Shown: positions 31,337 through 56,777, numbered from the stretch's first letter. The stretch: DNA of 64,000 bases from an uncultured Thermoanaerobaculia bacterium (GCA_964609835.1 CAZSTH010000006.1:5379-69378); one strand, 5' to 3'. Program-made: numbers and translations. Notes: a model not told the origin generated them from the sequence alone.

Positions 31337-34300
31337 ATGAGAAACACTGGACACTGGTGGGCGGGCGCCACCCTTGTGGTGGGAACCCTCTTGGTGCTGC
31401 CGTGCGTGTCGGCCGCCGGCGACGCACCACAGCCGAACGTCAACGCCGCGGTGAAGCGCGGGTCGTCTCCGGCGCTCCGCGATCTACCCGCCTTCGTCCC
31501 GGACGCCACGGCGCCCGAGGAGGTCAGGGAGATCAACCCGCGCAACGCGAGACTCCCGGCGGCCCTCCTCGAGGCCGACGAGCCCGAGGGCGAGCTCGAC
31601 CCGGCTGTGCAGAGCATGCACTTTGCCGACAATATGCCCGCCCCTGTGGTGAACTTCGAGGGTATCGGCAATGTCAATGGTGTGCTGCCGCCGGACACCA
31701 CCGGCGATGTCGGCCCCGACCACTACGTTCAGTGGGTGAATCTATCGTTCGCCGTGTTCGACAAGACGGGCGCAGTGCTCGCAGGCCCCTTCAACGGCAA
31801 CGTTTTGTGGACGGGTTTCGGCGGCACGTGCGAGACCAGCAACGACGGTGATCCCATCGTCCTCTACGACCACATTTCGGATCGCTGGGTGATGAGTCAG
31901 TTCACCGGGGATAATCACCAGTGCATCGCCGTGTCCAAGTCCGGCGACCCGACCGGCGAGTGGTGGCTTTACGACTTCCTGGCCGACGCCAACTCGGGCT
32001 ACTTCAACGACTATCCGAAATTCGGCGTGTGGCCCGACGGCTACTACTTCAGCGCGAACATGTTCGGAGCCTCCTTTCAGGGTGCCATGGCGGCGGTCTT
32101 CGAGCGCGACGCCATGCTCAACGGCGATCCAGCGCAGATGATCTGGTTCTTCACACCGGACCTCGCGGACTCGCCGTCGTTCAGCATTCTCCCGGCCGAT
32201 CTCGACGGGCTCAACCTGCCGCCGGCGGAAGCGCCCAACCCGTTCATCATGTCGGTGGACGACGCGTGGGGCTACGACTTCCCTTACGACACCGACGCCC
32301 TCGTGGTGATGGAGTTCGCGGTAGACTGGGACACCCCCGGCAACTCCACATTCGGACCCACCGAGGTCATCGATCTCACCGCTGCCGGTCTCGGCTTCGA
32401 CAGCAACATGTGCGGCTACAGCCGCAACTGCATTCCACAGCCCGATACGGCCCAGGGCGTGGACGCGTTGTCGAGCCGCGCCATGTACCGGCTCCAGTAC
32501 CGCAACTTCGGCACCCACCATTCCCTGGTGGCCTCGCAGACGGTCGACGAAAACGGCGCTGACCACGCAGGCGTCCGCTGGTACGAGCTGCGCGACGAGG
32601 GCATGGGCTGGGGCGTCTTGCAAGGCAGCACCTTCGCTCCCGACGACGCGCACCGCTGGATGGGCGACGCCGCAATGGATGCCTCGGGTAACATCGCGGT
32701 CGGCTACAGCGTGTCGAGTTCGACGGTATATCCCAGCATCCGCTGGGCCGGCCGGCTGGCCAGCGATCCGGTCAATTCCCTCGCACAGGGGGAGTCGGAG
32801 GTCTACACCGGCGGCGGTTCGCAGCAAAACACATCCGCCCGTTGGGGCGACTACTCGACCATGGCGGTCGACCCAGTGGACGACTGCACCTTCTGGTACA
32901 CCCAGCAGTACATAGAGAGCACGGGCAACGCCCCGTGGCAGACCCGCGTCGCCTCGTTCAAGTTCGACTCGTGCACCACGGGACCGGCAGGCACCGTAGA
33001 GGGCACGGTCGTCAACTCCGCCACCATGAACCCGCTCGAGGGCGCCCTGGTGGAGGTCGGTGGGTTCTCCACCGTGACCGACACTATGGGCTTCTACTCG
33101 ATCACGGTCCCCGAGGACACCTACGACGTCACCGCCTCGAAGTTTGGCTTCACCGCCCTGACGGCCACCGACATCGAGGTGTTGGACGGGCTCACCGTGA
33201 CCCAGGACTTCGAGCTCACACCGGTCGGCCCCGCCGGGCTCGACGGCTACGTGACCGGCGAGGGCTTCAGCTGGCCGCTGTACGCGATGGTCGAGATCTC
33301 GAGCGCCGGCGAGACCGTCGCCGAGCTCTACACCGACCCGCAAAACGGCTACTTCGAGGTCGAGCTGCCCATGAGCACGCCCTACGATCTCGTCGTGACA
33401 TCTCTGATCGAGAGCTACCTGCCCGCGACGCGCAGCATCGTGCTCGACATGGGCGGCCAGACCGAGAGCTTCGTGCTCGAGGATGACGGCACCGGCCCGT
33501 GGAACAACTGCCGCTGGATCGACGGCATCGAGGAGGACTTCGATGGCGGCTCCTTCCCGCCCACCGGTTGGACCACCATCAACAACGGTGGCGACTGCGT
33601 GTGGTCGGACACCGCCACGGTCGGCCGATCGAATCTGACGCCGGGTTCCGGGGTCGCCGCAACGGCGGACTCCGACCGCTGCGGGATCGGGACCACCATG
33701 GACACCGACCTGGTGTCGCCGGTGATGGACCTCTCCGGAGCGACCGAGGTGTCACTGGAGTTTGCATACTCCTACAACGACATCGGCAGCGCCGACTTCG
33801 CCGCCGCGTCGGTCAGTGCGGACGGCGGGGCCAGCTGGACCAACATCGTGACCTGGACCTCGGACGTGTCGGGAACTCTGACCTCCGACGTCTCAGGCCT
33901 GCTCGCGGGGTCGGCCAACGCCGTGGTGCGCTTCACCTACTTCGCACCGAGCTGGGACTGGTATTACCAGGTGGACAACGTGGTCGTCACCAGTGACGGC
34001 GGTGACGCCTCCTACGAGTGCACGCAGCTGTTGGGCTCGCTCGTCGAAGGCTTCGTGACCGATGCCAACTCGGGCGACGGGCTGATCGGCGCCGAGGTCA
34101 GCAACGACATCGGCGGATCGACCACCACCGTGGCCACCCCCGATGACCTGATGCTGCCCGACGGCTTCTACACCCTCTTCACGCCGCTGCCGCTCGGTGA
34201 TGGGCCGTCCACAAGGACCTTCACCGCCACAGCGAACGGGTACGGAGCGGGCGAGGTCGCCGTCAACCTGACGCCGAACACAGTCAATGCGCTCGATTTC

Positions 34301-36034
34301 GAGCTCAAGGCGGGTTGGCTCGAGCTAACGCCGGACCTCCTCTCAGCGCGGCTCTACGCAGGCGAGACCGGCGACCAGAGCCTGGAGGTCGTCAACCACG
34401 GCGGGATCGACGCTGACGTCATGCTGATGTCGGTGCCGGTGAAGGTGAGCTGGGACTACAGCGCACCCGAGTTCGACCTCGGAAACCTGCCCGGGAACAC
34501 CGATACGCTGTCGATGGGCCGGGCACCGTCGGCCGGAAGCCCGGAAGCAGTGAACTGGAATACCGACCTCGTCCTCAACGGGGCAGAGGCCTTCGGCATG
34601 GACATCTTCCCCGGCCAAACGCTCGTCAATTGGCCCGATGTCACGGCGCCGGATACCTGGAACATCATCTCCGGCGGCATGGAGTCGTTCTACGCGGGTG
34701 GGGACTTCCTGCTCGGGGACTTCAGCACGCTCTACGTCATTGGCTACTCGACCAACAACTTCGCCACAGTCGATACGGCAACCGGTGCGGCCACCGTCAT
34801 CGCGGTCGCCAACCCGGGCGGTGGCGAGTCGTGGAGCGGAATGACGGCAGCGGTGTACGGCACGCTGTACGCGGCCAGTGCGGTCTGCGGCGTCAACTCC
34901 ACCCTCCACACCATCGATCCGACGACCGGTGCGGTCAGCACCATCGGATCGATCACCAACGGCACCTGCATCATCGACATCGCCATCAATGCCGAGGGCG
35001 AGCTCTTCGGCATCGACTTGGTCACAGACACGCTGCTTCAGATCGATCCCGGCACCGGTGCCGGGACCGTGATCGGATCCCTGGGCGTCGACTGCAACTT
35101 CGCACAGGGCATGGACTTCGACGAGGTCTCGGGAACCCTCTACTGGGCGGCCTACACCCTCCAGGGCGAGCTCCGGGTCATCGACACCTCGACCGGTGCG
35201 AGCTCGCTCGTCGGGGCCTTTCCGGGCGGCGCCGAGGTGGACGCCTTCGCCATCGCGACCTCAGCGGGCGGCGGCGGTCTGCCGTGGTTGGAGCTCACCC
35301 CGACCGACGGCACGTCGCCGGCCAACGGCGATCTGCCGATCAACGCCGAGTTCATCGCCGACGGGGCCGATCACTACGGCCTCTACCAGGCGCGCATCAT
35401 GGTCGGCCACGACACGCCCTACGACGTCAACGAGACCTGGGTGTGCTTCACCAAGGCCTTCAACGACGTCAACGAGGCCTTTTGGGGCAACGAGTACATA
35501 CACTCGGTGGCGGGCGCCCGCATCACGGGCGGCTGCGGCCTCGGCAACTTCTGCTCCGGCGACCTCATGCTGCGGCACGTCATGGCGCGCTGGCTGCTCA
35601 AGCTGGTGCACGGACCGGACTACTCGCCGCCTCCGTGTCAGGGCGTTTTCGAGGACGTGGTCTGCGAGTCGACACCGAACGCGGACTGGATCGAGCAGCT
35701 CTACGCCGAGGGCATCACAACCGGTTGTTCGGCCGATCCTCTGCTTTTCTGCCCCTACGACGGGGTGACCCGTTCGCAGATGGCGGTCTTCATCCTGCGC
35801 GCAATCGAGGGTCCCGATTACGTACCACCTGCGTGCACGGGCGTCTTCGGCGATGTCAACTGCCCGAACTACTGGGCCGCCGACTGGATCGAGGAACTCT
35901 ATGCTCGCGGCATTACCACAGGGTGCTCGGCCGATCCGCTGCTCTTCTGCCCCGCGGATTCGACCAACCGTGCGCAGATGTCCGCCTTCGTGCAGCGTGC
36001 ATGGGAGCTTCCCATGTGCGCGGACGAGGACTGA
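31337..36034 (+). CDS. 1,565-aa secreted multidomain surface protein ending in three Cys-bridged SLH-like repeats.
   Basis: GAAGGAGGAG lies upstream and the signal peptide is MRNTGHWWAGATLVVGTLLVLPCVSAAG. An N-terminal conserved unknown domain contains DPIVLYDHISDRWVMSQF. It is followed by CarboxypepD_reg-like repeats and a choice-of-anchor-J/MAM-like segment (FDGGSFPPTGWTTINNGGDCVWS). A propeller-like repeat region comes next. The SLH-like repeats occupy 35459..36031. Confidence 0.85.
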   Translation: MRNTGHWWAGATLVVGTLLVLPCVSAAGDAPQPNVNAAVKRGSSPALRDLPAFVPDATAPEEVREINPRNARLPAALLEADEPEGELDPAVQSMHFADNMPAPVVNFEGIGNVNGVLPPDTTGDVGPDHYVQWVNLSFAVFDKTGAVLAGPFNGNVLWTGFGGTCETSNDGDPIVLYDHISDRWVMSQFTGDNHQCIAVSKSGDPTGEWWLYDFLADANSGYFNDYPKFGVWPDGYYFSANMFGASFQGAMAAVFERDAMLNGDPAQMIWFFTPDLADSPSFSILPADLDGLNLPPAEAPNPFIMSVDDAWGYDFPYDTDALVVMEFAVDWDTPGNSTFGPTEVIDLTAAGLGFDSNMCGYSRNCIPQPDTAQGVDALSSRAMYRLQYRNFGTHHSLVASQTVDENGADHAGVRWYELRDEGMGWGVLQGSTFAPDDAHRWMGDAAMDASGNIAVGYSVSSSTVYPSIRWAGRLASDPVNSLAQGESEVYTGGGSQQNTSARWGDYSTMAVDPVDDCTFWYTQQYIESTGNAPWQTRVASFKFDSCTTGPAGTVEGTVVNSATMNPLEGALVEVGGFSTVTDTMGFYSITVPEDTYDVTASKFGFTALTATDIEVLDGLTVTQDFELTPVGPAGLDGYVTGEGFSWPLYAMVEISSAGETVAELYTDPQNGYFEVELPMSTPYDLVVTSLIESYLPATRSIVLDMGGQTESFVLEDDGTGPWNNCRWIDGIEEDFDGGSFPPTGWTTINNGGDCVWSDTATVGRSNLTPGSGVAATADSDRCGIGTTMDTDLVSPVMDLSGATEVSLEFAYSYNDIGSADFAAASVSADGGASWTNIVTWTSDVSGTLTSDVSGLLAGSANAVVRFTYFAPSWDWYYQVDNVVVTSDGGDASYECTQLLGSLVEGFVTDANSGDGLIGAEVSNDIGGSTTTVATPDDLMLPDGFYTLFTPLPLGDGPSTRTFTATANGYGAGEVAVNLTPNTVNALDFELKAGWLELTPDLLSARLYAGETGDQSLEVVNHGGIDADVMLMSVPVKVSWDYSAPEFDLGNLPGNTDTLSMGRAPSAGSPEAVNWNTDLVLNGAEAFGMDIFPGQTLVNWPDVTAPDTWNIISGGMESFYAGGDFLLGDFSTLYVIGYSTNNFATVDTATGAATVIAVANPGGGESWSGMTAAVYGTLYAASAVCGVNSTLHTIDPTTGAVSTIGSITNGTCIIDIAINAEGELFGIDLVTDTLLQIDPGTGAGTVIGSLGVDCNFAQGMDFDEVSGTLYWAAYTLQGELRVIDTSTGASSLVGAFPGGAEVDAFAIATSAGGGGLPWLELTPTDGTSPANGDLPINAEFIADGADHYGLYQARIMVGHDTPYDVNETWVCFTKAFNDVNEAFWGNEYIHSVAGARITGGCGLGNFCSGDLMLRHVMARWLLKLVHGPDYSPPPCQGVFEDVVCESTPNADWIEQLYAEGITTGCSADPLLFCPYDGVTRSQMAVFILRAIEGPDYVPPACTGVFGDVNCPNYWAADWIEELYARGITTGCSADPLLFCPADSTNRAQMSAFVQRAWELPMCADED

Positions 36035-36072
36035 TCGCAACATCGGCCGTCAACGGGCGGTGCAGAACCTAC

Positions 36073-36099
36073 GCCGGGCCTCAGGGCCCGGCGTTTTTT
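36073..36099 (+). terminator. Rho-independent terminator.
   Basis: GCCGGGCC-tcag-GGCCCGGC is followed by g and TTTTTT. Confidence 0.8.
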
Positions 36100-36272
36100 G
36101 CCCGCTCATCATGGTTGGAGACGCGATATAGTAGATCTCAAGGTCGGGCGCGATTGGAGACCGAAAACACGATCGAGCGAAGCACCGGGGGCCGCATGGT
36201 GCAGCGGCAGGTGGCGTTCTGTGAAGGGGACGTGCCCGCCAACCGGTCGATCGAATCAGGAAGGAGCAGACG

Positions 36273-38108
36273 ATGCGGAGTAGCTCGCGATGTTGGTTGA
36301 CGGGAGTGACGATCATGGTCGCGCTGATTTCGAACGCGGCAACGGTTCCGGCCGCCGGCCCCGAGGAGGCCGACCAGGCCGGTCTCGAGCTCGCACCCGA
36401 TGTCCTCGAGTCGCGCCTCGGGCGCGGCGAAACCGAGGGACAGGCGCTCGAGATCCTGAACTTCGGCGACACCGAGGCAACGGCCCTTCTGTTCCTACTT
36501 CCCTACTCGCCGTGGGTACCCGGCGTACCGATGGACCACATCGACATCCCGCAGCTGACCGCCGAGCAGTCGGCAGCACTGACCTCCCGACTCGTCGGAG
36601 CAACCGGACGTCAACCTGCGGCGACAAGTGCCACCGGCGAGGTCGTCTCGTCGTGGGCCCACGGTTTGACCATCGGTTGGGGCCTCGGCGTCAACCAGCT
36701 GACCGACACTATTTGGGTCGGCGACCCCGGGGCCGCAGGCGGCACCGATCTCGACTATGAGTTCACCCGCGACGGCGTGGCCACCGGCGCCACCATCGAC
36801 ACCTCGCCGTGGGCAGGGGTCTTCGCGGCCGACATGGCCTTCGATCCGATCTCCGGCATGCTGTGGCAGCTCGACGTCGGCGGCATCAACTGCATCCACG
36901 AGCTCGACCCGGTGACCGCATCGGCCACCGGCGAGACGATCTGCTGGAGCGCGCCGTCGTCGGAGCGGGGTCTGGCCTACGATCCGCTGTCGCAGACGTT
37001 CTTCGTTGGCGGTTGGAACACCCTCGCGATCACCCGCTTCGACCGGGCGGGCAACGTGCTTCAGGTCGTCGACGTCGGTCTCGCGATCTCGGGCCTGGCC
37101 TACAACCCGCAGACCGAGCATCTGTTCGTGATCGAGAACTCGATCGAAGACGCGGTCACGGTCCTCGATGTCGGCGACGACTACAGCGAGATCGGGTCCT
37201 TCACCGTGCCCGGGTTTGGGAACTATGCCGGCGCCGGCCTCGGCATCTCCTGCGACGGCCACCTGTGGGCGGCGAACCAGGCGGACATGAAGGTCTACGA
37301 GATTGATTCGGGCGAGACGGAGGCCTGCCTCGTCGCGTCCCTGCCGTGGATCGAGCTGACGCCAGGCTCCGCCGTGGTCCCTCCCGATCCAGGCGAGCAG
37401 GGGCAGGTCACCATCGACGTTCAGTTCATCGCCGACGGCCTCACCCACTTCGGGCTGGTCCAGGCCACAGTGCTTCTCACCGACGGTGACGGAGACGTCG
37501 CAGACCAGGGCCGTGTCTGCATGACGCGGGCGTTCGACGACATCGCGGAGAGCTTCTGGGCCGACGCCTCGATCCACGCCACGGCCGGCGCACGGATCAC
37601 CACCGGTTGCGGACTTGGCGATTTCTGCCCGAGCGACGTGATGCTGCGACATGTGATGGCCAACTGGCTGGTCAAGCTGACGCACGGGCCGGATTTCTCT
37701 CCGCCTCCCTGCACCGAGACCTTCGGCGACGTGGTCTGCGAGCTGACGCCGAACTCGGACTACGTCGAGCAGCTCTACGACGATGGCATCACGACCGGTT
37801 GCTCGGCCGACCCGTTGCTCTTCTGTCCGTATGACGGAGTGACCCGAGCGCAGATGGCGGTCTTCCTGCTGCGGGCCATCGAGGGACCGGACTACTTTCC
37901 GCCACCCTGCACCGGCATCTTCGGCGACGTCAACTGCCCGAGCTTCTGGGCCGCTGATTGGATCGAGGAGCTCTACAGCCGGGGCATTACAACCGGCTGC
38001 TCGGCTGACCCTCTGCTTTACTGCCCGTTCGACCTCACGAACCGGGCGCAGATGTCCGCGTTCGTCCAACGGGCGTGGGAGCTGCCCATGTGTGAGGCCG
38101 ACGACTGA
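36273..38108 (+). CDS. 611-aa secreted beta-propeller-like protein ending in three Cys-bridged SLH-like repeats. It is a paralog of the C-terminal part of 31337..36034.
   Basis: AGGAAGGAG lies upstream and the N-terminus MRSSSRCWLTGVTIMVALISNAATVPAAG looks like a signal peptide. NHL/YncE-like repeats include LAYDPLSQTFFVGGW and LAYNPQTEHLFVIEN. The SLH-like repeats occupy 37533..38105. Confidence 0.85.
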   Translation: MRSSSRCWLTGVTIMVALISNAATVPAAGPEEADQAGLELAPDVLESRLGRGETEGQALEILNFGDTEATALLFLLPYSPWVPGVPMDHIDIPQLTAEQSAALTSRLVGATGRQPAATSATGEVVSSWAHGLTIGWGLGVNQLTDTIWVGDPGAAGGTDLDYEFTRDGVATGATIDTSPWAGVFAADMAFDPISGMLWQLDVGGINCIHELDPVTASATGETICWSAPSSERGLAYDPLSQTFFVGGWNTLAITRFDRAGNVLQVVDVGLAISGLAYNPQTEHLFVIENSIEDAVTVLDVGDDYSEIGSFTVPGFGNYAGAGLGISCDGHLWAANQADMKVYEIDSGETEACLVASLPWIELTPGSAVVPPDPGEQGQVTIDVQFIADGLTHFGLVQATVLLTDGDGDVADQGRVCMTRAFDDIAESFWADASIHATAGARITTGCGLGDFCPSDVMLRHVMANWLVKLTHGPDFSPPPCTETFGDVVCELTPNSDYVEQLYDDGITTGCSADPLLFCPYDGVTRAQMAVFLLRAIEGPDYFPPPCTGIFGDVNCPSFWAADWIEELYSRGITTGCSADPLLYCPFDLTNRAQMSAFVQRAWELPMCEADD

Positions 38109-38246: not shown

Positions 38247-41200
38247 ATGAACGCACCACATGTCTTCATCGCCGGCTACTACGGCTTTCGCAACCTCGGC
38301 GACGAGGCGGTACTGTCGGCCATGCTCGACCAGCTTCGGGAGCGGCTCGAGGCCCCGACCTTCATCGTCGCCTCAGGGGACCCCGACCACACCACCCGGC
38401 AGCACGGCGTCGGCGCGGTCCCGTGGCGTGATCTCGTCGCGACCGGCAAAGCCGTTGCAGATTCGAATCTGGTCATTATCGGCGGCGGGGGGCTGTTCCA
38501 CGATTATTGGAGGGCCGACCCGACCTCGGTACTGTCCAGCCATCACTACGGCGTCTCCTGGTGCGCATCGACGGCGCTGCTCGCCCGATTGCACGACAAG
38601 CCCCTCATGATCTTCGGCGTCGGCGTCGGACCGCTTGAAACGCACGAGGGCGCCACACTGACACGGCAGGTGTTCGAGCTCGCACAAGATGCCACGGTGC
38701 GGGATTCCGAGTCGCACGATGAGCTCGAGCGACTCGGTGTCCCCGAATCTCTTGTCACCGTGAGCGCCGATCCGGTGTTCGCGAGCCCCGCTCCGGATCC
38801 GCATGTCCGCGACTGGGCCGAGCGACGCCTGACCGGCGTCACCGGCCGGCCGCTGCTCGGCGTGTGTCCCCGGGGCTGGAGCGTCGACGTCGCCCAGTCC
38901 GATTGGCTCAAGACTGTCGCTGAAGGTGTCACCAGATTCGCAAACGCCCACGAGGCGGGCGTGGTCGTGATTCCGTTCAGCGACCTCGACGAAGATGCCG
39001 CCGACGACACCGTCGTCGCCCACGCGCTAGCAGCGACGCTCTCCACCGACGGTCCGGTGCTCGAGATCGGAGTGCCCGAGGACGCTCCGAACGCACGCGC
39101 GCTGCTCGGTCGCTGCGATCTCGTGCTCGGAATGCGGTTGCACTCCGTCATCTTCGCGGCCCTTGAGGGAACGCCGTTGGTCGGCCTGGCCTACGATCCG
39201 AAGGTCCGCCGGACCCTATCGGCCCTCGGTGCCCGCTCCTCGTGTCTGGAGCTTCACGATTTGGATCCAGACCGCCTGCTTTCGAGCCTCGAGAGCGCCT
39301 TCGCGAGCCGAGAGGCGGCCGGGCCCGAACTCGCGCAGGCCGCCGCAAGGCTCGCGGCACGGGCCGCCGTCTCGGCCGACAGGGCGGTCTCGCTTCTCGG
39401 CCGCCGCGAGGTGGGGACCCAAGGCCTCCCGCCCCTGCGTGAGGATTTTTTTCGATCGGCCGTGACCACGGTCATCGAACGTGCGGAGGCGAAATCGTCG
39501 ACGGCCGAAAGACTGGAGGTGCAGCGCGACTGGATCGAAGAGCAGCGCGAGGAGCTCGCCGCTAGTAACCAGGACCTCCAAAGGCAGCTCGAGAGCCAAC
39601 GCCTCGAGATCGATGCCTTGAACGCCAGGCTTCACCGGTTGGTGTCCACCCGGGCGTTCCGCTTCGCCGCGGGGTGGTGGCGTCTCGCGTCGGGCCTCCG
39701 CCGGGCGCTCCAGAGGTCATCGAATTTCGGCGTGTTACCGCTGAGAAGCTGGTACGCCTACGCGTTCGATCGCTTCAAGAGGGCGCGGGGCGCCATCGCC
39801 GGCGATGCGGCTTCAGGCATTCATTGCCCGGGGGACGAGGGTCTGGTGTCGGTGGTGCTTCCCGTGTACAACGGCGCCGACCTCGTCCATGAATCGCTCG
39901 ACAGCCTGCTCTCGCAGACCTACTCGAACTTCGAAATCATCGCCATCAACGATGGATCGACCGACCGAACGGGCGAGGTACTCGACGATTACGCCAAGCG
40001 CGACCCGCGCGTGCGGGTCATCCACCAGCAGAACCGTAAGCTGCCCCGCACCCTGTCGCGCGGCTTCCGAATGGCGCGCGGCCAATTCCTCACCTGGACC
40101 AGCGCCGACAACCGCTGCAAACCCGAGTTCATGCAATCAATGGTGGACTGTCTCGAGCGGCATCCGGATTGGGATATGGTCTACGCCAACGTGGACATCA
40201 TCGGCGACGAAGGCGGTCCGCTCCGCGACTCGCCCTGGTTCGCCGGCTACCAGGTGCCTCCCGGCAGCGAGCACGTCCACCTGCCCCACGACCCGGGTGA
40301 GCTCAATACCTGGGCGAACAACTACGTCTGTGCCGCCTTCCTGTACCGCAGCCGCGTGGCGTGGTTGCTCGGCGACTACAGTCGCTACCGATTCACCACC
40401 GAGGACTACGACTACTGGATGCGAATCAACGAGATGCTGACGCTACGTCACGCCGATTTCGACGAACCGGTCTACGACTACCGCTTTCATGACGAGTCGC
40501 TGACCGCCCGCGACGAAGAGCTCGGCATCACCCGCGGTCGGGACCGGTTGATGGTCTTCGACGATTTCCGCCGCGACGCCCTGCTGACCTCGGCCCTCTG
40601 GCACATCGAACACCGCTCTTCTGCCACCGCGGGACTCGCCGAGGCGCTGCGGCGGCACGTCCGCCGAGCGGGCCACCTGATGTTCGATCCCGCGAAAGAT
40701 GCCGTGGAGCCATGGCCGGATTTCTATCTCACGTCGATCATGGTGCGCGTGGCTACCCCGGACGAGGCCGGTGAGCCGCCACCGAAGCTCCCCCAGAACT
40801 GCCTCAAGGTGCTCGCGCTCCAGACTGCCGAGGCGACCGTGTGTGCCCCGCGGGAGCCTGACGCTGCCTGGGACCTCTGCGTGGCGGTTGGTCCCACCGG
40901 CGGCTCGGAACCGCTGGAGCCGTACCGTCACTGGTTGGCCGCCGACGGTGCCGAATCGTTGTTCCTGGCCGCCGAGGTGCGCGCCCGGAGCGATAGCTTC
41001 GCGGCGGCCGAGGCCGCTGCCGAAGGAGCCGGTCCGAAAGCGACCCTGCGTGCATCGATCGTCATCTGCACCCACCAGGTGATCTCTCCCTTTCGGGACT
41101 CGGTGCTGTCCGCGGTGCGTCAGCACGCCGGTCCCGAGTCGTACGAGGTCTTGGTGGTGAACAACCGGCCCGGAGATCGGGACCTCGAGCTCGAGATCGA

Positions 41201-42020
41201 ATCCGTGAAAACCATCGCGGACAGTGAGCGCCCGGGGCTCATTCGCGTCGTCCGCTGCCCGGTGCCGGGCCTCTCGCACGCCCGTAACGCCGCCATCGCC
41301 GTCGCACGGGGAGAGATCGTGATCTGTCTCGATGACGACGCGATCGCTCGTCCCTCGCTGGTCGACGAGGCAGTGCGGCTGTTCGCCGAGCGGCCAGGGA
41401 TCGGCATCATCGGCGGCCATATCCGCCTCCAACCGCCCGAACCGAAGCCCGAGGTGTTGAATCCCGGGTGGGAGCGCTACTGGAGCCAGCTCCTTACCGG
41501 CGCCACCGCCTGCCACGAGGTCGAGGAATGGTGGGAGTTTCCGTGGGGCGCCTGCTGGTGCGCCCGCCGCGACCTTCTGCTGGCCATGGGCGGATTCCGC
41601 AGCCGTTACGGCCGCGTCGGCAGCGATTACGCCGGTAGCGAGGAGGTCATCGCCGCCGCGCTCGCCCAGCGCCTCGGCGCCGGCATTGCCGTTGCTCCGG
41701 AGCTCGAGGTGCAGCACCGCGTCGAGCGCAGCCGCTACACCTGGCGCCACGTCCGCCGGACGATCATCGCCGGCACCCTCGTCAACTACCAAGCCCAGCG
41801 CGACCTCTACTTGCCGATGTGGGAGGGCATCGGCTCGACCGCACGGAAACTCCTCAGCCCGTCGATCGACCGCACCGTGGGCGCCAACAGCGTCGCGGCA
41901 CGGGCCCGCCATTGGCTGTACCGCAAGGAGGCGTGGCTGCGGCTCCTCCGCGTGCAGCTCGCCGATTGGAGGCGGCGACTGCGGAGGCCATCCCACGCTG
42001 TCCGCCATCGGCGCCGGTGA
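38247..42020 (+). CDS. Trifunctional 1,257-aa protein: CsaB-type polysaccharide pyruvyltransferase domain, then a coiled coil, then two GT2 domains.
   Basis: The N-terminal domain has FIAGYYGFRNLGDEAVLSAML, VIIGGGGLFHDYW, FGVGVGPL, VRDSESHDELERLGV and SADPVF. The coiled coil is ERLEVQRDWIEEQREELAASNQDLQRQLESQRLEIDALNARLHRLV. The first GT2 domain has VSVVLPVYNGADLVHESLDSLLSQTYSNFEIIAINDGSTD. The second has YEVLVVNNRPGD and ICLDDDAIA. Confidence 0.8.
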   Translation: MNAPHVFIAGYYGFRNLGDEAVLSAMLDQLRERLEAPTFIVASGDPDHTTRQHGVGAVPWRDLVATGKAVADSNLVIIGGGGLFHDYWRADPTSVLSSHHYGVSWCASTALLARLHDKPLMIFGVGVGPLETHEGATLTRQVFELAQDATVRDSESHDELERLGVPESLVTVSADPVFASPAPDPHVRDWAERRLTGVTGRPLLGVCPRGWSVDVAQSDWLKTVAEGVTRFANAHEAGVVVIPFSDLDEDAADDTVVAHALAATLSTDGPVLEIGVPEDAPNARALLGRCDLVLGMRLHSVIFAALEGTPLVGLAYDPKVRRTLSALGARSSCLELHDLDPDRLLSSLESAFASREAAGPELAQAAARLAARAAVSADRAVSLLGRREVGTQGLPPLREDFFRSAVTTVIERAEAKSSTAERLEVQRDWIEEQREELAASNQDLQRQLESQRLEIDALNARLHRLVSTRAFRFAAGWWRLASGLRRALQRSSNFGVLPLRSWYAYAFDRFKRARGAIAGDAASGIHCPGDEGLVSVVLPVYNGADLVHESLDSLLSQTYSNFEIIAINDGSTDRTGEVLDDYAKRDPRVRVIHQQNRKLPRTLSRGFRMARGQFLTWTSADNRCKPEFMQSMVDCLERHPDWDMVYANVDIIGDEGGPLRDSPWFAGYQVPPGSEHVHLPHDPGELNTWANNYVCAAFLYRSRVAWLLGDYSRYRFTTEDYDYWMRINEMLTLRHADFDEPVYDYRFHDESLTARDEELGITRGRDRLMVFDDFRRDALLTSALWHIEHRSSATAGLAEALRRHVRRAGHLMFDPAKDAVEPWPDFYLTSIMVRVATPDEAGEPPPKLPQNCLKVLALQTAEATVCAPREPDAAWDLCVAVGPTGGSEPLEPYRHWLAADGAESLFLAAEVRARSDSFAAAEAAAEGAGPKATLRASIVICTHQVISPFRDSVLSAVRQHAGPESYEVLVVNNRPGDRDLELEIESVKTIADSERPGLIRVVRCPVPGLSHARNAAIAVARGEIVICLDDDAIARPSLVDEAVRLFAERPGIGIIGGHIRLQPPEPKPEVLNPGWERYWSQLLTGATACHEVEEWWEFPWGACWCARRDLLLAMGGFRSRYGRVGSDYAGSEEVIAAALAQRLGAGIAVAPELEVQHRVERSRYTWRHVRRTIIAGTLVNYQAQRDLYLPMWEGIGSTARKLLSPSIDRTVGANSVAARARHWLYRKEAWLRLLRVQLADWRRRLRRPSHAVRHRRR

Positions 42021-46661: not shown

Positions 46662-47461
46662 GCCCCCTCCCCTCCGCTCGCCGACGCTTTGGCAGATTGA
46701 CCGCCCGCAACCCCGGCCAACGGCTCCTGTGTGTACAGGCTGACCACCTCGTCCACCGGTCCGAGCGCCGTCAACCGGCCCGTGCTCAGCAGAGCCGCGC
46801 GCGTGCACAGATTGCGCACCGCCTGCAGATTGTGGGAGACCAGGAGCACGGTTGCTCCACCGTCGCGGAATTCGTTGATCCGCTCGGTGCACTTCGCCTT
46901 GAACTCGGTGTCGCCCACCGACATGATCTCGTCCATCAGCAGAACGTCCGGTCGCACGTCGGTGGCGATCGCGAAGCCGAGCCGGGCGCGCATGCCCGTC
47001 GAGTACGTCCGCAGCGGTGCGTCGATGAAATCCGCGAGGCCCGCGAAGTTGATAATTCGATCGAAACGCGCCGCCATGTCCGCGCTCGAAAAGCCAAGGG
47101 TCGCGCCGACCAGAAAGACGTTCTCCCGCCCGCTGAGCTCGTCGTTGAACCCCGCGCCGAGGCCGAGCAGCGGCGCCACCAGGCCGCGAACCACGACCCG
47201 ACCGCCGGTCGGTCGAAGCACCCGCGCCACCACCTTGAGGAGCGTCGTCTTGCCGGCACCGTTGCGGCCGATGAGGCCGAAGACCTCGCCCGCCCGGACC
47301 TCGAACGAGATGTCGCGCAGCGCCCAGAACTCACCCACCGCCAGCTGTCGCTTGAGCCTCCGGATCGCGTACTCCTTGAACGAGGTCACCTTCTCGTGCG
47401 AGACCCGGTAGCACAGCGAGAGTTCCTGGACGGCGATCGCGGGTCGAGGCGCGGTGCTCAC
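46658..47461 (-). CDS. wzt: Polysaccharide-export ABC transporter ATP-binding protein (Wzt/TagH/KpsT type), with no C-terminal carbohydrate-binding extension.
   Basis: FWALRDISFEVRAGEVFGLIGRNGAGKTTLLK, YSTGMRARLGFAIA and VLLMDE are present. At 267 aa it contains only the ATPase core. Confidence 0.85.
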   Translation of the reverse strand: MSTAPRPAIAVQELSLCYRVSHEKVTSFKEYAIRRLKRQLAVGEFWALRDISFEVRAGEVFGLIGRNGAGKTTLLKVVARVLRPTGGRVVVRGLVAPLLGLGAGFNDELSGRENVFLVGATLGFSSADMAARFDRIINFAGLADFIDAPLRTYSTGMRARLGFAIATDVRPDVLLMDEIMSVGDTEFKAKCTERINEFRDGGATVLLVSHNLQAVRNLCTRAALLSTGRLTALGPVDEVVSLYTQEPLAGVAGGQSAKASASGGEGA

Positions 47462-51957: not shown

Positions 51958-52098
51958 GGGCCTGATAAATTTAATTGAAAATCGGAGCAAGAAGTGAAAC
52001 AATAAATGTACACAGAAAAGGTCGCGATCGGCCGGAGTTTCCCACCTAATGTTGGCAGAAATTGATGGATGACCGAACCTGAAAAGGAGGCGAAAGCT

Positions 52099-52932
52099 AT
52101 GGAGAAGAGGACCTGTGTCGTGATGTTGGCAGTGGCGCTAGTTTTCTTTGCGCAAGGGGTCGAGGCTGAGATGCCGGATCCGAACCTGCAGAAGCTGCCA
52201 TCCGAGATCGTTGGAGAACACCTCTGGGACGGGCTAACCAGTGAGGATGGCGCGGCTCCAAAAGGCTCGTCGTTCGGCCTGGAATGGCAGTACTATCACC
52301 TTATGGGCGCCAAGTTCGTCCCAGTATCTTCGAACGAATGCACCATGAGATACCACTCGTGGTACGGCTTCTACCTTGAGTCCATTGACGGCACGACGTG
52401 CAGTAACGGATACGTCATCGCGCCGATGAACCTTCCGGCCGGGGCATATCTCGACCGAGTCGCTTGCTTCACCTATGACACTGACGCCACCCAGAACATC
52501 GACTGGGCCTTTCAACGCGTAGAATATCCTTTCCCCAATGGTCCCCCGACGTACACAAACGTAACCACCATGACAAGGGACTACGACACAGGCTGGGGGG
52601 AGATCTGGACCTCGGTCGGTGAGACCATCCGCTACGCTCTCACCAATGCCCAGTTTTACGGCCTCAGGGTTTGGATGGATCCAGGCAATACAGACCACAG
52701 ATTGCTGGCCTGCCGGCTGTACTGGAACCGTCAGATCGCTCCGGCCCCTGGCACCGCCACGTTCGACGACGTGGGCACCCTCCACTGGTCATTCCAGAAC
52801 GTGGAAGCCCTTGTTGACGCCGGCATCACCGTCGGCTGTGGCGGGAACAACTACTGCCCGGGACAGACAGTGACTCGCGCCGAAATGGCGGCCTTCCTGG
52901 CCCGCGCGCTCGGCCTGCACTGGCCCTACTAG
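52099..52932 (+). CDS. Secreted protein of unknown function with one C-terminal Cys-bridged SLH-like repeat.
   Basis: AAGGAGG lies 8 nt upstream and the signal peptide is MEKRTCVVMLAVALVFFAQGVEA. The C-terminus is FDDVGTLHWSFQNVEALVDAGITVGCGGNNYCPGQTVTRAEMAAFLARAL. GC content is visibly lower than in the flanking sequence. Confidence 0.8.
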   Translation: MEKRTCVVMLAVALVFFAQGVEAEMPDPNLQKLPSEIVGEHLWDGLTSEDGAAPKGSSFGLEWQYYHLMGAKFVPVSSNECTMRYHSWYGFYLESIDGTTCSNGYVIAPMNLPAGAYLDRVACFTYDTDATQNIDWAFQRVEYPFPNGPPTYTNVTTMTRDYDTGWGEIWTSVGETIRYALTNAQFYGLRVWMDPGNTDHRLLACRLYWNRQIAPAPGTATFDDVGTLHWSFQNVEALVDAGITVGCGGNNYCPGQTVTRAEMAAFLARALGLHWPY

Positions 52933-52953
52933 TCGCTCATTCGAGCGTATTCG

Positions 52954-52983
52954 ACCGGCGTGCTGCGGCGCGCCGGTTTTTTT
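52954..52983 (+). terminator. Rho-independent terminator.
   Basis: The stem ACCGGCGTGC/GCGGCGCGCCGGT has a tetraloop and is followed by a T6 run. Confidence 0.75.
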
Positions 52984-53026
52984 GTATGCGCTGCTGCATC
53001 CCTAAAATTGGGCCCTCGGAGGCATC

Positions 53027-55486
53027 GTGAACATCTCCCGAACCATCAGTGCAGTTCTCGTCGTTGTCGCTCTCGCATCCGTCGTCCCAGCCCGCGCCGG
53101 CGCACCCACGCCTGCCCCCGTCCACCCCTGGGTGCTCGAGCACACGCTGGATGGTCACGAGGCGCAGTTTTTTGTGGTGCTGCGCGAGCAGGCAGACTTA
53201 CAGCCCGCGCGCTCGCTCGAGTCGAAGGCTGCGAAAGGACATTTCGTTTTCCAGGCACTCCGAGACACTGCCGAGAGCAGCCAGGCGGATCTGCGGGCAC
53301 TGCTCGAGAAGGAGGGCGTCTGGCATCGTCCGTTCATGATCGTCAATTCCGTGCTGGTGCGAGGCGACCGCGAGCTGGTTGAACGCCTTGCCAGACGCCC
53401 CGACGTCCTCAGGATCGAGGGCAACCCGGTGATCCACAACGAACTGCCCTCCACTGCCCCAGGATCATCCAGCGAGGCACCGAATGCCGTTGAATGGGGC
53501 GTCTCCCGCACGAACGCGCCCGCGGCATGGGCGCTGGGTTTTACCGGCCAAGGCATCGTGGTTGGCGGTCAGGACACCGGGGTCGACTGGGACCATCCAG
53601 CCATTCGCGACCAGTACCGGGGCTGGGACGGTGAGGCGGCAGACCACGACTACAGCTGGCACGACGCGATCCACGACGCCGGCGACAACCCCTGCGGCAG
53701 CGACTCGCCCGAGCCGTGCGACGACCACGGGCACGGAACCCATACCATCGGCACGGTCGTGGGCGACGACGGCGGCTCCAACCAGATCGGGATGGCACCC
53801 GGCGCCCGCTGGATCGCCTGCCGCAACATGGACGCGGGCAATGGCACCCCGGCCACCTACATCGAATGCCTCGAGTTCTTCCTGGCCCCGTATCCCTACA
53901 GCGCCACACCGGCAGAAGGGGATCCCTCGAAGGCTCCCGACGTCACCAACAACTCGTGGTCGTGCCCACCGTCGGAGGGCTGCTCGTGGGACACGCTGCA
54001 GGCCGCCATCGACGCGCAACGGGCGGCCGGCATCATGACCGTGGTGTCGGCCACCAACGACGGTCCCTCGTGCGCAACCGTCACCGACCCGCCGGCAATC
54101 TACGATTCGGTCTACTCAGTTGGCTCGACCACGTCGTCGGACCAGCTGTCCAGTTTTTCGAGCCGGGGACCGGCGGCCACCAACGGCGACGACCCGACGC
54201 TGATGAAGCCCGATATCGCGGCCCCGGGGTCTGGAATCCGCTCCGCGCTTCCGGGCGGAGGCTACGGAACCATGTCCGGCACCAGCATGGCCGGGCCGCA
54301 CGTGGCCGGTGCCGTGGCCATCTTGTGGTCCGCTCTGCCGGAGTTGACCAACGACCAGACCGCCACCGAGGCTCAGATAAACGAAACCGCCGTTCGGCTG
54401 ACCGGCATTGTCGAGGGCTGCGGCGGCGACAACGTCGACGGTCCGAACAACTCGTGGGGCCACGGGCTGGTGGATGTGGAGCAGGCGCTGATCGGTGACA
54501 CCTCGCTGCAGCCGAACGGCCTCGAGGTCGAGCTGGTTGACGGCCTCGACAACGGGGTTCTCGAGCGCGGCGAGCAGTTCCGTCTCGCTCCCTCTTGGTT
54601 CAATCCGGGGACCTTCGTGGCGCCGTCGATCACCGGCCAGGCATCCGCCGCCACCGGTTTGCTCATCGCAAAGGACACCGCCTCGTACGGTGACATCCCT
54701 GCCGGGGCCGAGCAGTCGTGCTCCGGTCAGGGTGATTGTTATAGCGTTCGGGTTTCGAGCTCGCGTCCGGCTGGCCATGTGGACCGAACGCTCAACGAGC
54801 TGTTGAGCAGCGGCGAGACCGCCGAATGGGTGCTGCACATCGGTGAGAGCTTTACCGATGTGGCTACCGACTTTTGGGCCTATCCGTCAGTGGAGACCAT
54901 TCTCCACCACGGCGTGACCCTCGGTTGCGGCGGAGGGCTCTACTGCCCGGGCGACATCGTACCGCGTTGGCAGATGGCCTTGTTCCTGGCCCGCGCCATG
55001 ACCGGCCCCGCCGAGATTCCCTTGACCGGGGTGGTTCCGGGCAAAGGGAGCTACGACTGCTCCCCCGGAGGCACATCATTGTTCGATGACATCCTTCCTA
55101 CCGATTCAGCCTGTGCCGCGGTTCACTACCTGGCCACTCATGAGATCACCCTCGGATGCGGCGGGTCGCTCTATTGTCCGAACGACCCAGTCGCCAGAAG
55201 GGAAATGGCGGCGTTTCTCGCCCGCGCAATGGCTGGCGACAACCCCATTCCGACCACCGGCACGGTCCTTGGAATGGGCGATTACGATTGCTCACCCGGG
55301 GGCGCCTCCGTTTTCGCTGACCTGACCGCGGACGATTGGGCCTGCCCCGAGGTTCACTTTATCGCCTCGTACCAGGTCACCCTCGGCTGCGGCGGCTCGC
55401 TCTATTGCCCGGGCGAGATCGTCACCCGCGCCCAGATGGCTGCCTTCCTCGAGCGCGCCTTTTCGCTCGAGCTCTATGGACCCTAG
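53027..55486 (+). CDS. Secreted subtilisin-family (S8) protease with an I9-like propeptide and three C-terminal Cys-bridged SLH-like repeats.
   Basis: GGAGG lies upstream of the GTG start. The catalytic triad motifs are GQDTGVDWDHP (Asp), DDHGHGTHTIGTV (His) and MSGTSMAGPHVAGAVAIL (Ser). The SLH-like repeats occupy 54851..55483. Confidence 0.9.
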   Translation: MNISRTISAVLVVVALASVVPARAGAPTPAPVHPWVLEHTLDGHEAQFFVVLREQADLQPARSLESKAAKGHFVFQALRDTAESSQADLRALLEKEGVWHRPFMIVNSVLVRGDRELVERLARRPDVLRIEGNPVIHNELPSTAPGSSSEAPNAVEWGVSRTNAPAAWALGFTGQGIVVGGQDTGVDWDHPAIRDQYRGWDGEAADHDYSWHDAIHDAGDNPCGSDSPEPCDDHGHGTHTIGTVVGDDGGSNQIGMAPGARWIACRNMDAGNGTPATYIECLEFFLAPYPYSATPAEGDPSKAPDVTNNSWSCPPSEGCSWDTLQAAIDAQRAAGIMTVVSATNDGPSCATVTDPPAIYDSVYSVGSTTSSDQLSSFSSRGPAATNGDDPTLMKPDIAAPGSGIRSALPGGGYGTMSGTSMAGPHVAGAVAILWSALPELTNDQTATEAQINETAVRLTGIVEGCGGDNVDGPNNSWGHGLVDVEQALIGDTSLQPNGLEVELVDGLDNGVLERGEQFRLAPSWFNPGTFVAPSITGQASAATGLLIAKDTASYGDIPAGAEQSCSGQGDCYSVRVSSSRPAGHVDRTLNELLSSGETAEWVLHIGESFTDVATDFWAYPSVETILHHGVTLGCGGGLYCPGDIVPRWQMALFLARAMTGPAEIPLTGVVPGKGSYDCSPGGTSLFDDILPTDSACAAVHYLATHEITLGCGGSLYCPNDPVARREMAAFLARAMAGDNPIPTTGTVLGMGDYDCSPGGASVFADLTADDWACPEVHFIASYQVTLGCGGSLYCPGEIVTRAQMAAFLERAFSLELYGP

Positions 55487-55508
55487 AAAACCCTCGCGCG
55501 AAACACCG

Positions 55509-55545
55509 AAGCAAGAAAAACCGGCCCGGCGTGTTCGCCGGGCCG
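55509..55545 (-). terminator. Rho-independent terminator for the minus-strand gene. It may act in both directions.
   Basis: CCGGCCCGGCG-aaca-CGCCGGGCCGG is followed by TTTTTCTT on the minus strand. It lies between convergent genes. Confidence 0.7.
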
Positions 55546-55574
55546 GAGTCTCTTGAGATGTCTCAGGTTGGAGG

Positions 55575-56777
55575 TCAGTCGTTGGGCAGCACCCTGGTCA
55601 GACTGTAGGTGCGCTGCAAGAAGGCCGCCATCTGCGAGCGAGTCACCGAGTCGAAGGGGCAGTAGTTGCCGTCGCCGCAACCGGTGGTGATACCGTCCTC
55701 GCCGAGCTTCTTGATCCACTTACAGAATGGATGGGTGTCGGGCACATCGTTGAACCCGGAGTTGCCGCCGGAGCAGGCGGGTGGAACGTAGCTTGCACCA
55801 TATTTTCCGCGCAGCAGGAAGACCGCCATCTGGCCGCGGTTGACGGCGTCGAAGGGGCAATAGATCAGCGGATTCGTGCCGCAGCCGCCGGTGAACCCTT
55901 CATCGTAGAACTCCTCGACCCAGTCGTAGAACCACTGGCCGCTGTTGACGTCGGCGAACGTGGGGGTTCCAGGACCATCAGGCGGCGCGTAAGAGCATGC
56001 GTCTACATTCTCCCCTCGGAGAATAAACGCCGCCATCTGTGCGCGGGTTACCGTGTCGAAGGGGCAATAGACGCCTACACCGCAACCGGTCGTGACGCCG
56101 CCCCCGTAGATCGCCAGCACATCGGGCAGGTACCAGGCGCTCGAGGGTATGTCGCTGAAGACCTCGACGGGGCCGATCACGGAGTCGGTGCGGAATGAGG
56201 CGAAATCGTCAAAGAGCAGGCTTCCCGAGGTGCCCGAGTCGACGCCCGCCACAGCACCCATTCGAGCGGTTTCGATCGAGCCGGTACTGTTGCTCAAGCT
56301 CGGCAGGTCTTGGACCGCCGTATTGTCGATCCGCGCCTCGAGACTGCCCGGCGAACCGGCCTTCCAGGTCACCTCGATCAGATGCCATCCGGCCGGCAGC
56401 ACGGTCGAATTCGAGGTCAAATACGTGCCGCCATCCACGCGGCCCTCGAACTTGACAATGCGGTCCGACCCGCTCTGATCGAGAATCACACGCGCCCACA
56501 CGTTGTCCGATCCGTCGAGTGCCTCAAACAGGCTGAACCCGTCGCCCGCCATTGTCAGACAGTTGGCCCGGACATAGAAGCGGAAGGTGTAGGTGGCTTC
56601 GCCGCTCGGTGTGTCGGTCTCAACGTACGCCGGCGACGTGTCAGTGATGGTCACCTTCATCCCGTAGGTCCCGCTGTACTCGGAAAATTCGTCAACCGCC
56701 GGAGCATCGTTGGCGCCGGCAGCGCCGGCGAACGCCAGCGTCAGCACCGAAAGAATGGCCACCGTTCTCGACTTCAT
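55575..56777 (-). CDS. Secreted LamG/concanavalin-like domain protein with three C-terminal Cys-bridged SLH-like repeats.
   Basis: AGGAGG lies upstream and the signal peptide is MKSRTVAILSVLTLAFAGAAGA. The N-terminal beta-sandwich-like region contains WHLIEVTWKAGSPGSLEARIDN. The SLH-like repeats occupy 55578..56159. Confidence 0.8.
   Translation of the reverse strand: MKSRTVAILSVLTLAFAGAAGANDAPAVDEFSEYSGTYGMKVTITDTSPAYVETDTPSGEATYTFRFYVRANCLTMAGDGFSLFEALDGSDNVWARVILDQSGSDRIVKFEGRVDGGTYLTSNSTVLPAGWHLIEVTWKAGSPGSLEARIDNTAVQDLPSLSNSTGSIETARMGAVAGVDSGTSGSLLFDDFASFRTDSVIGPVEVFSDIPSSAWYLPDVLAIYGGGVTTGCGVGVYCPFDTVTRAQMAAFILRGENVDACSYAPPDGPGTPTFADVNSGQWFYDWVEEFYDEGFTGGCGTNPLIYCPFDAVNRGQMAVFLLRGKYGASYVPPACSGGNSGFNDVPDTHPFCKWIKKLGEDGITTGCGDGNYCPFDSVTRSQMAAFLQRTYSLTRVLPND

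Follow-up and report, generated by a model that had tools for sequence, protein, structure and literature searches.

Paired-cysteine S-layer homology repeats on five secreted proteins beside a CsaB-type glycan cluster in an uncultured Thermoanaerobaculia bacterium

Five proteins with C-terminal cysteine-containing repeats

We analyzed a 64,000-nucleotide stretch of DNA recorded as belonging to an uncultured Thermoanaerobaculia bacterium (GCA_964609835.1, CAZSTH010000006.1:5379-69378), referred to here as the window; all coordinates are positions in this whole stretch. Five of its open reading frames (ORFs), designated proteins A to E, end in repeats of a cysteine-containing variant of the S-layer homology (SLH) domain, which we call Cys-SLH. 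There are 13 such repeats, three each in A, B, D, and E and one in C. This arrangement had been proposed in an original prediction made from the sequence alone, and the five ORFs exist at the coordinates given there. By eye, each protein begins with a basic and hydrophobic segment resembling a signal peptide.

31337..36034, +, protein A: 1565 aa; signal peptide, large cargo, C-terminal triple Cys-SLH module
36273..38108, +, protein B: 611 aa; signal peptide, cargo, C-terminal triple Cys-SLH module
52099..52932, +, protein C: 277 aa; signal peptide, unknown cargo, one C-terminal Cys-SLH repeat
53027..55486, +, protein D: 819 aa; signal peptide, S8 subtilase cargo, C-terminal triple Cys-SLH module
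55575..56777, -, protein E: 400 aa; signal peptide, weakly LamG-like cargo, C-terminal triple Cys-SLH module

The regular expression [IVLF][TS]xGCx(3-6)[FYL]C[PS], which describes the repeat core, matches exactly 13 times, always in the C-terminal parts of proteins A to E, and finds nothing in any other reading frame of the window. By chance, a mean of 0.025 matches is expected, as estimated from 200 triplet shuffles of the window. A hidden Markov model (HMM) of the 13 repeats, searched against all six frames with --max, recovered the same 13 at 87–97 bits each, with everything else in the six frames scoring about 3 bits or less.

35420..35623, +, repeat A1: divergent; RITGG-C-x4-F-C-S, LRHV for TRAE, Trp13; HMM 87.4 bits
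35612..35821, +, repeat A2: GITTG-C-x6-F-C-P, TRSQ, second pair PPPC...DVVC, Pro at 13
35810..36019, +, repeat A3: GITTG-C-x6-F-C-P, NRAQ, PPAC...DVNC, Trp13, extra C-terminal Cys (PMC)
37494..37697, +, repeat B1: RITTG-C-x4-F-C-P, LRHV, Trp13; HMM 89.2 bits
37686..37895, +, repeat B2: GITTG-C-x6-F-C-P, TRAQ, PPPC...DVVC
37884..38093, +, repeat B3: GITTG-C-x6-Y-C-P, NRAQ, PPPC...DVNC, Trp13, C-terminal PMC
52723..52926, +, repeat C1: GITVG-C-x4-Y-C-P, canonical TRAE, Trp13; HMM 93.3 bits
54812..55015, +, repeat D1: GVTLG-C-x4-Y-C-P, PRWQ, Trp13
55043..55246, +, repeat D2: EITLG-C-x4-Y-C-P, ARRE, second pair YDC...SAC, Ser at 13
55274..55477, +, repeat D3: QVTLG-C-x4-Y-C-P, TRAQ, second pair YDC...WAC, Trp13
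55995..56198, -, repeat E1: GVTTG-C-x4-Y-C-P, TRAQ, Trp13
55788..55997, -, repeat E2: GFTGG-C-x6-Y-C-P, NRGQ, Trp13, without second pair
55590..55793, -, repeat E3: GITTG-C-x4-Y-C-P, TRSQ, second pair PPAC...PFC, Pro at 13

Eight alignment columns (F, D, T, G, C, C, R, and M) are invariant over the 13 repeats. The original motif, which allowed four or five residues after the first cysteine, needs correction: the spacing is C-x4-[FY]-C in eight repeats and C-x6-[FY]-C in the other five (A2, A3, B2, B3, and E2). Its C-P element occurs in 12 of the 13, but A1 has C-S. Likewise, the TRAE/TRAQ-type motif keeps its arginine throughout, but the full T/N-R-x-Q/E form is found in only nine repeats, the exceptions being A1 and B1 (LRHV), D1 (PRWQ), and D2 (ARRE). 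The second cysteine pair ascribed to repeats 2 and 3 is present in A2, A3, B2, B3, D2, D3, and E3 but missing from E2.

Proteins A and B have further cysteines: one just before FxD in A1 and B1 (WVC and RVC; 35420-35450 and 37494-37530) and one in the LPMC that ends A3 and B3 (36016-36022 and 38090-38096), giving 12 cysteines per module. A disulfide between these two positions, which would close the trimer ring, was considered and dropped, the orthologues of A in two related loci (L041 and L025) lacking both residues. In these orthologues (L041 6790-11607 and L025 6614-9730), the first repeat has a different, longer loop (MMGGPPNC-x7/8-FCP) with TRAD or SRAD, which indicates faster evolution of the first repeat than of the other two.

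The cargo of protein A contains CarboxypepD_reg, choice-of-anchor J, and DUF4394/DUF6923 propeller-like domains (Pfam). The S8 protease assigned to protein D was borne out (Pfam Peptidase_S8, 2.3e-43), but the LamG-like label of protein E rests below threshold (13.3 bits against a Pfam cut-off of 27.6) and the cargo of protein B gives no significant Pfam match. The cargo had been described as unrelated throughout. However, the last 255 residues of A and B, comprising the SLH module and about 50 residues upstream, are 67% identical, and the comparison indicates that the two proteins are paralogous over this region, leaving about four cargo types among the five proteins. The stretch of about 50 residues just upstream of the module (35270-35420 in A and 37340-37494 in B) retains the pattern LPW[LI]ELTP...FIADG..H[YF]GL in both and is possibly a small linker domain; a short LELTPD motif also occurs nearer the N-terminus of each. 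The A ortholog in the Thermoanaerobaculia locus L041 has 1605 aa and is 40% identical over 1046 aa.

SLH homology, predicted fold, and the paired-cysteine loop

The Pfam SLH profile (PF00395, gathering threshold 20.8 bits; the domain is also PROSITE PS51272) passes for proteins C (32.9 bits, profile positions 1-44 of 44), D (32.2 bits), and E (45.7 bits), but stays under threshold for B (13.3 bits) and has no match in A. By themselves, 6 of the 13 single repeats match, and the L041 ortholog of A passes at 42.8 bits. A profile of all 13 repeats matches solved SLH structures, namely Sap of Bacillus anthracis (6bt4, 1.4e-15; also 3pyw), SbsB (4aq1, 9.5e-14), OmpM of Veillonella (8bz2, 2.3e-8; also 8bys), and SlpA of Deinococcus (7zgx, 0.012). 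The six A and B repeats taken alone as a profile have Sap (9.7e-4) and OmpM (1.4e-3) as top matches, and the B and E modules are 42% identical to each other (E 9e-38).

We modeled the three-repeat modules of E and B with AlphaFold2 (AF2) on a 122-sequence alignment. The predicted local distance difference test (pLDDT) and predicted template modeling (pTM) scores were 92.9 and 0.87 for E and 94.8 and 0.90 for B, and both models consist of six helices, two per repeat. Using Foldseek against the PDB, the significant matches were exclusively Sap and SpaA SLH trimers, which also filled the top 15, with a probability of 1.00 and a target-normalized TM of up to 0.84–0.85; the E model matches 3pyw with an E-value of 6.7e-9 and a TM of 0.84. 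The comparison with the Sap and SpaA structures that had been proposed thus returned both proteins.

Together, the Pfam passes, the profile matches to solved structures, and the predicted trimer folds identify the module as SLH. The original prediction had called the repeats SLH-like and made this relation depend on profile similarity and a spindle fold; both clearly match SLH, and the 13 repeats are almost certainly bona fide SLH domains by fold and homology. From the models, the four three-repeat proteins are predicted to adopt the classical pseudo-threefold SLH spindle, with protein C having a single repeat.

To place the cysteines, we numbered residues by the PROSITE scheme of Blackler 2018 (PMC6081394), anchored on a HMMER alignment to Sap, in which positions 5-8 hold FxDV, position 13 the Trp, positions 25-29 GIIxG, and position 43 the Arg of TRAE. 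Repeat C1 then reads F5-DDV-GTLH-W13 ... G25-ITV-G29-C30-GGNN-Y35-C36-P37-GQTV-T42-R43-AE. The cysteine pair lies at positions 30 and 36, right after Gly29 and right before the conserved Pro37. As had been predicted, it replaces the residues of the classical loop: G29-[YF]30-x-D-G-T-F35-x36-P37 has become G-C-x4/6-[FY]-C-P (C-S in A1) in every repeat, with a two-residue insertion in five of the 13. The same replacement is seen in 120 of 120 close homologues. Gly29 is present in all 13 repeats ([GREQ][IVF]T[TGLV]G) and is invariant or more than 90% conserved in the 122-sequence alignment, and Arg43 is likewise present in 13 of 13. Trp13 occurs in 9 of the 13, and tryptophan occupies this position in 46% of 689 family repeats.

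Ligand binding in SpaA requires a flip of the Gly29 backbone, after which the backbone amide of this residue and Arg43 together hold the carboxylate of the pyruvate; residue 30 (Lys110) lines the pocket, and Trp13 of the third repeat stacks against the sugar ring (PMC6081394). SLH domains typically have the G-[YF]-x-D-G-T-F-x-P loop, but this loop does not determine binding (PMC6081394). Applied to the residues found here, the SpaA scheme, in which Arg43 of repeat n acts with Gly29 of n+1 and Trp13 of n+2, would give two complete grooves per three-repeat module.

We infer that a disulfide most likely joins Cys30 to Cys36 and staples a seven- or nine-residue loop lining each ligand groove. From 120 homologues and 80 genomic loci we parsed 692 distinct repeats, of which all have both primary cysteines and none has a single one; four apparent repeats with neither were false positives of the regular expression in non-SLH sequence, in unrelated frames. 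DSSP assigns a tight beta-turn between the two cysteines in the E and B models. A second, optional disulfide most likely connects the linker between repeats with the beginning of the repeat. In the same set, the second pair has neither cysteine in 535 repeats, both in 114, and a single one in 33 (Fisher p ~1e-95, uncorrected for phylogeny), and when both are present they lie mostly at -4 from F5 and +2 after V8. Being mostly both-or-neither, this pair behaves as a unit and provides the sole real covariation-type signal.

Distribution of the variant and the neighboring glycan cluster

A search with the E module returned 721 protein clusters, and in the best 120 the cysteine core is present in all, the classical loop in none, and a precomputed PF00395 match in almost all. 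Searched widely as had been proposed, in a full HMMER scan of 1.84 billion protein representatives, the module profile found 10,249 proteins at E<=1e-30 and 130,033 at E<=1e-3, the latter including classical SLH proteins. All of the top 148 matches have the cysteine variant, 131 with exactly three cores and 140 with the module at the C-terminus. The Pfam SLH profile passes in 76 of 76 sampled homologues, alongside 52 other Pfam families that include FG-GAP, beta-helix, cadherin, GH44, S8, M35, M23, and VWA. The module is therefore a portable tag, as the original prediction had it.

At least 576 loci with the Cys-SLH module occur in species-representative genomes. The best 80 of these are all from metagenome-assembled genomes (MAGs): 43 from Acidobacteriota (many of them Thermoanaerobaculia), 26 from Chloroflexota (Anaerolineales), 8 from Gammaproteobacteria (5 Sedimenticola), and one each from Rhodocyclaceae, Nitrospirota, and a deltaproteobacterium. 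Thus 54 are labeled Acidobacteriota, Proteobacteria, or Nitrospirota, and such MAG labels may include binning errors. Six or more cores, that is, several Cys-SLH genes side by side, occur in 27 of the 80 loci. Triple modules occur in independent MAGs that are binned, per their labels, as Gammaproteobacteria (L002, L012, L013, L017, and L037 from Sedimenticola; L005, L007, and L022), a class that is not known to use SLH anchoring.

Between and beyond the Cys-SLH genes, the window encodes the following proteins of glycan metabolism and export.

38247..42020, +, CsaB-type polysaccharide pyruvyl transferase with two GT2 domains: 1257 aa; PS_pyruv_trans 1.8e-32, two Glycos_transf_2 domains (Pfam)
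42790..45816, -, sulfatase-family protein: 1008 aa; Pfam Sulfatase 7.2e-36; twin-arginine signal and lipobox SRRQFI...LAGC (by eye)
45813..46892, -, sulfotransferase: Pfam Sulfotransfer_1 1.4e-14
46658..47461, -, ABC transporter ATPase, Wzt-like, polysaccharide exporter: Pfam ABC_tran; 52% identical homologue in syntenic L025
47463..48563, -, ABC-2 permease, Wzm-like: Pfam ABC2_membrane 1.3e-16; syntenic in L025
48323..50608, -, GT1/GT2 fusion glycosyltransferase: Pfam; homologues 39% identical in L004 and 44% in L025
56986..57957, +, GT2 glycosyltransferase: Pfam; continues the glycan cluster
58111..59463, +, GT1 glycosyltransferase: Pfam
59448..61031, -, Polysacc_synt (Wzx-like) flippase: Pfam 5.6e-16

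The region from 38 to 61 kb is a glycan cluster with a Wzm/Wzt ABC exporter. The CsaB-type fusion starts 139 bp downstream of the gene for protein B. Its best NCBIfam match is TIGR03609 (S_layer_CsaB, 201.7 bits), with WcaK, a colanic-acid enzyme, at 38 bits, and records from Phototrophicales, Acidobacteriota, Bryobacteraceae, and Thermoanaerobaculia give the name CsaB to fusions built in the same way. The enzyme presumably makes a pyruvylated ligand. The sulfatase beside the sulfotransferase suggests that the polymer is sulfated as well as pyruvylated.

Parts of this arrangement are syntenic beside Cys-SLH genes in Thermoanaerobaculia MAGs. Locus L025 has a sulfatase, two SLH giants (one A-like, one B-like), Wzt, Wzm, and a glycosyltransferase; L041 has the A ortholog and a sulfatase; L063 has a Cys-SLH M12B protease, a sulfatase, and a PS_pyruv_trans-GT2 fusion, and L036 is similar. 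Sulfatase homologues adjoin Cys-SLH genes in all four, and L063 and L036 have a PS_pyruv_trans-GT2 fusion or PS_pyruv_trans gene no more than 6 kb from their Cys-SLH genes. We also searched 80 related loci, with 6 kb flanks on either side, by tblastn with the CsaB domain. Since just 2 of the 80 gave a CsaB homologue at a distance of up to 6 kb, about as many as expected by chance, general adjacency or operon linkage was dropped for the family and synteny is claimed for the Thermoanaerobaculia-like subset only; close linkage to CsaB characterizes this lineage rather than the Cys-SLH family.

Elsewhere in the window, an ORF at 50523-51881 (+), between the glycan cluster and the genes for C, D, and E, encodes a secreted protein with nine Sel1 repeats. 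A second S8 subtilase-family ORF (24718-27036, +, 772 aa) has no SLH module, which means that the secreted proteases here are not all tagged. A giant protein of more than 2099 aa (3-6299, -), which continues beyond the window, has at least six CarboxypepD_reg repeats and SdrD_B and SpaA prealbumin-like domains, with no SLH repeat in the portion inside the window. A 1230-aa protein at 6520-10212 (-) joins TPR repeats to a C-terminal CHAT (caspase-like) domain, and a 474-aa protein at 17858-19282 (+) combines YscW, NlpE N- and C-terminal, and META domains in an unusual four-domain lipoprotein-type architecture. The gene run at 11193-15555 (-), encoding radical SAM, 4Fe-4S polyferredoxin-like, and NTPase_1/DUF2478 proteins, is unrelated to the Cys-SLH genes.

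Ligand, envelope location, and relation to known SLH systems

We consider it probable that the repeats belong to a widespread SLH subclass with disulfide-stapled loops that anchors proteins non-covalently to a pyruvylated glycan. Enzymes and adhesin-like proteins exported by Sec would stay attached to the cell envelope through modules that bind a ketal-pyruvylated sugar on a polysaccharide, and this polysaccharide would be the product of the surrounding cluster with its CsaB-GT2 fusion, further glycosyltransferases, and Wzm/Wzt exporter. Three conserved SLH residues, each from a different repeat, would do the binding: Arg43 from the first, the backbone of Gly29 from the one after it, and Trp13 from the remaining one. 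With slightly less assurance than the explanation as a whole, a pyruvylated glycan is the likely ligand. The host looks diderm because of the NlpE-type lipoprotein, the sulfatase with its twin-arginine signal and lipobox, and the Acidobacteriota-like best matches. For a neutral ABC ATPase, the named best matches are to Acidobacteriota (58%), Thermoanaerobaculales (59%), and Methylomirabilota (59%). Synteny and the highest identities of the cargo likewise point to MAGs of Acidobacteriota/Thermoanaerobaculia. We thus assign the host, with moderate confidence, to diderm Acidobacteriota (Thermoanaerobaculia-like).

Several observations tell against this explanation. The TIGR03609 score of the fusion lies just under the equivalog cut-off of 213.1, and CsaB is rarely found near Cys-SLH genes in the related loci. 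No wall ligase (LCP) or O-antigen ligase, which would have helped to locate the glycan, was found among the scanned ORFs of the window. Furthermore, arrival of the tagged proteins at the surface is open to doubt in a diderm host, as is the route that they would take. To these can be added the failure of the Pfam profile on A and B, the odd number of cysteines (25) in mature protein A, and the seeding of our repeat sample with the cysteine variant, in which the primary pair is invariant and gives no true covariation signal.

The doubt about the surface bears on location. The proteins could stay in the periplasm, bound to a pyruvylated polymer that is linked to peptidoglycan, rather than be displayed on an outer-membrane glycan, a possibility that concerns where the module acts, not what it is, and to which we give somewhat less than an even chance. 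The diderm SLH interactions studied experimentally are all periplasmic, SLH domains acting there in Thermus, Deinococcus, and cyanobacteria, and proteins A to E carry Sec signals only in a host that looks diderm on the grounds given above. On the other side, the cargo of the family (FG-GAP, cadherin, Ig-like, YDG/MBG, beta-helix, glycoside hydrolases, and proteases) is typically surface-exposed or extracellular, and the Wzm/Wzt exporter of the cluster is of the type used by O-antigens and capsules.

It is unlikely that the SLH fold here binds another ligand, such as polyamine-modified peptidoglycan (as for OmpM in Negativicutes) or a sulfated polymer, with the Cys30 disulfide retuning specificity. 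The pocket-lining position 30, Lys110 in SpaA, is indeed cysteine here, a sulfotransferase and a sulfatase share the cluster, Trp13 is missing from 4 of the 13 repeats and from over half of the family repeats, and CsaB adjacency is not general; the literature also indicates that SLH ligand specificity can differ. Yet the pyruvate-contacting Arg43 and Gly29 are invariant, and the adjacent CsaB-type gene recurs near Cys-SLH genes in other MAGs.

Less probable still is that the cysteines are not disulfide-bonded but serve as free thiols, metal ligands, or intermolecular cross-links between anchored proteins. Many host lineages, such as Thermoanaerobaculia and Anaerolineales, are anaerobes in which oxidative folding is less assured, and the cysteine count of protein A fits this possibility. 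The mature-chain counts of the other proteins are even (B 16, C 6, D 20, and E 10). Moreover, the proteins are exported, the pairing is strict in all 692 repeats and both-or-neither for the second pair, each repeat has just two cysteines without conserved His or Asp partners, and the predicted tight turn fits a short-range intramolecular bridge. A new family with only convergent resemblance to SLH, for which the weak Pfam response of A and B might speak, is exceedingly improbable and is ruled out by the Pfam passes on C, D, E, and all 76 sampled homologues, the profile matches to solved SLH structures, and a predicted fold that Foldseek equates with the SLH trimer at probability 1.00.

Returning to anchoring on a pyruvylated glycan, we can offer a broader reading only tentatively, and its three parts jointly. 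The cysteine variant may have traveled together with CsaB-glycosyltransferase fusion clusters; it may serve as a general display system in these phyla, placing enzymes and adhesins on a pyruvylated, perhaps sulfated, Wzm/Wzt-exported polysaccharide; and this polysaccharide might lie on the outer face of the diderm envelope rather than on peptidoglycan.

The original prediction did not recognize the module as a described family. This view has to be given up in part: all checked homologues are detected by Pfam SLH, those with names are called "S-layer homology domain-containing protein" (NCBI and JGI), the variant is very common in metagenomes, and standard annotation pipelines already label the variant correctly as SLH. 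A literature search combining SLH with cysteine, disulfide, Acidobacteria, and pyruvyl found no paper on a cysteine-bridged SLH loop; one match to "conserved cysteine" concerned a lipoprotein. An undescribed variant is therefore tenable, a new family is not. What appears to be undescribed is the invariant pairing of Cys30 with Cys36 beside the glycine that binds the ligand, with the optional linker pair, and the large presence of this subclass, together with CsaB, in MAGs of Acidobacteriota, Chloroflexota, and Proteobacteria.

Acidobacteriota, Proteobacteria, and Nitrospirota are placed in the Gracilicutes, and SLH/CsaB anchoring has been treated as a hallmark of the Terrabacteria. A survey of 1,093 genomes, which detected SLH domains by PF00395 at the gathering cut-off, found SLH/CsaB "practically absent in the Gracilicutes" and lost in a monoderm clade including Chloroflexi. 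As the cysteine variant passes that cut-off, the disagreement reflects genome sampling, that is, the use of MAGs, and not detection. If the MAG labels hold, a large uncultured part of the bacteria keeps its proteases, glycoside hydrolases, and adhesins by SLH tags.

Among known systems, the CWB2 trimer of Clostridioides difficile Cwp proteins is likewise a trimeric cell-wall-polysaccharide anchor with a three-helix-bundle core (PMC6081394). It has a different fold, belongs to a different family, binds PS-II, and gave neither a sequence nor a fold match to the present module. The OmpM/Slp/SlpA tethers of diderm Terrabacteria (8BZ2, 8BYS, and 7ZGX) place SLH in a diderm envelope, are matched by our repeat profile, and, like protein C, have a single SLH repeat per chain. 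However, they combine it with a beta-barrel and a coiled coil and trimerize to tether the outer membrane, whereas the proteins here have no barrel and four of the five carry three repeats per chain.

Clostridia and Thermoanaerobacteria carry C-terminal triple-SLH anchors on extracellular enzymes and scaffoldins. These too are portable C-terminal tags on unrelated catalytic cargo (proteases and glycoside hydrolases), but they are classical, cysteine-free SLH domains in monoderm Firmicutes. The use of SLH to anchor other proteins is also noted in general terms in the 1,093-genome survey.

The closest structural counterparts are Sap of Bacillus anthracis (PDB 3PYW and 6BT4) and SpaA of Paenibacillus alvei (6CWC-6CWR and 7SV3-6). 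Like the modules here, they consist of three tandem repeats of about 55-65 aa in a three-pronged spindle (TM 0.80-0.85 to our predicted models), with GIIxG and its Gly29, a TRAE-type Arg43, Trp13 (in 9 of the 13 repeats here), and a CsaB-type pyruvyl transferase encoded nearby. In contrast, Sap and SpaA carry the module at the N-terminus of an S-layer protein in Firmicutes, whereas here it is C-terminal on enzymes and adhesin-like proteins of uncultured Acidobacteriota, Chloroflexota, and Proteobacteria, at an identity of just 14-23%. Loop residues 30 and 36, aromatic or polar in Sap and SpaA, are cysteine in every repeat here, 5 of the 13 loops are two residues longer, and extra disulfide candidates occur in the linkers. 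With a cysteine pair beside Gly29, at pocket position 30, this variant amounts to a natural experiment on how loop rigidity relates to SLH affinity and stability, and it may offer a route to more robust SLH display tags.

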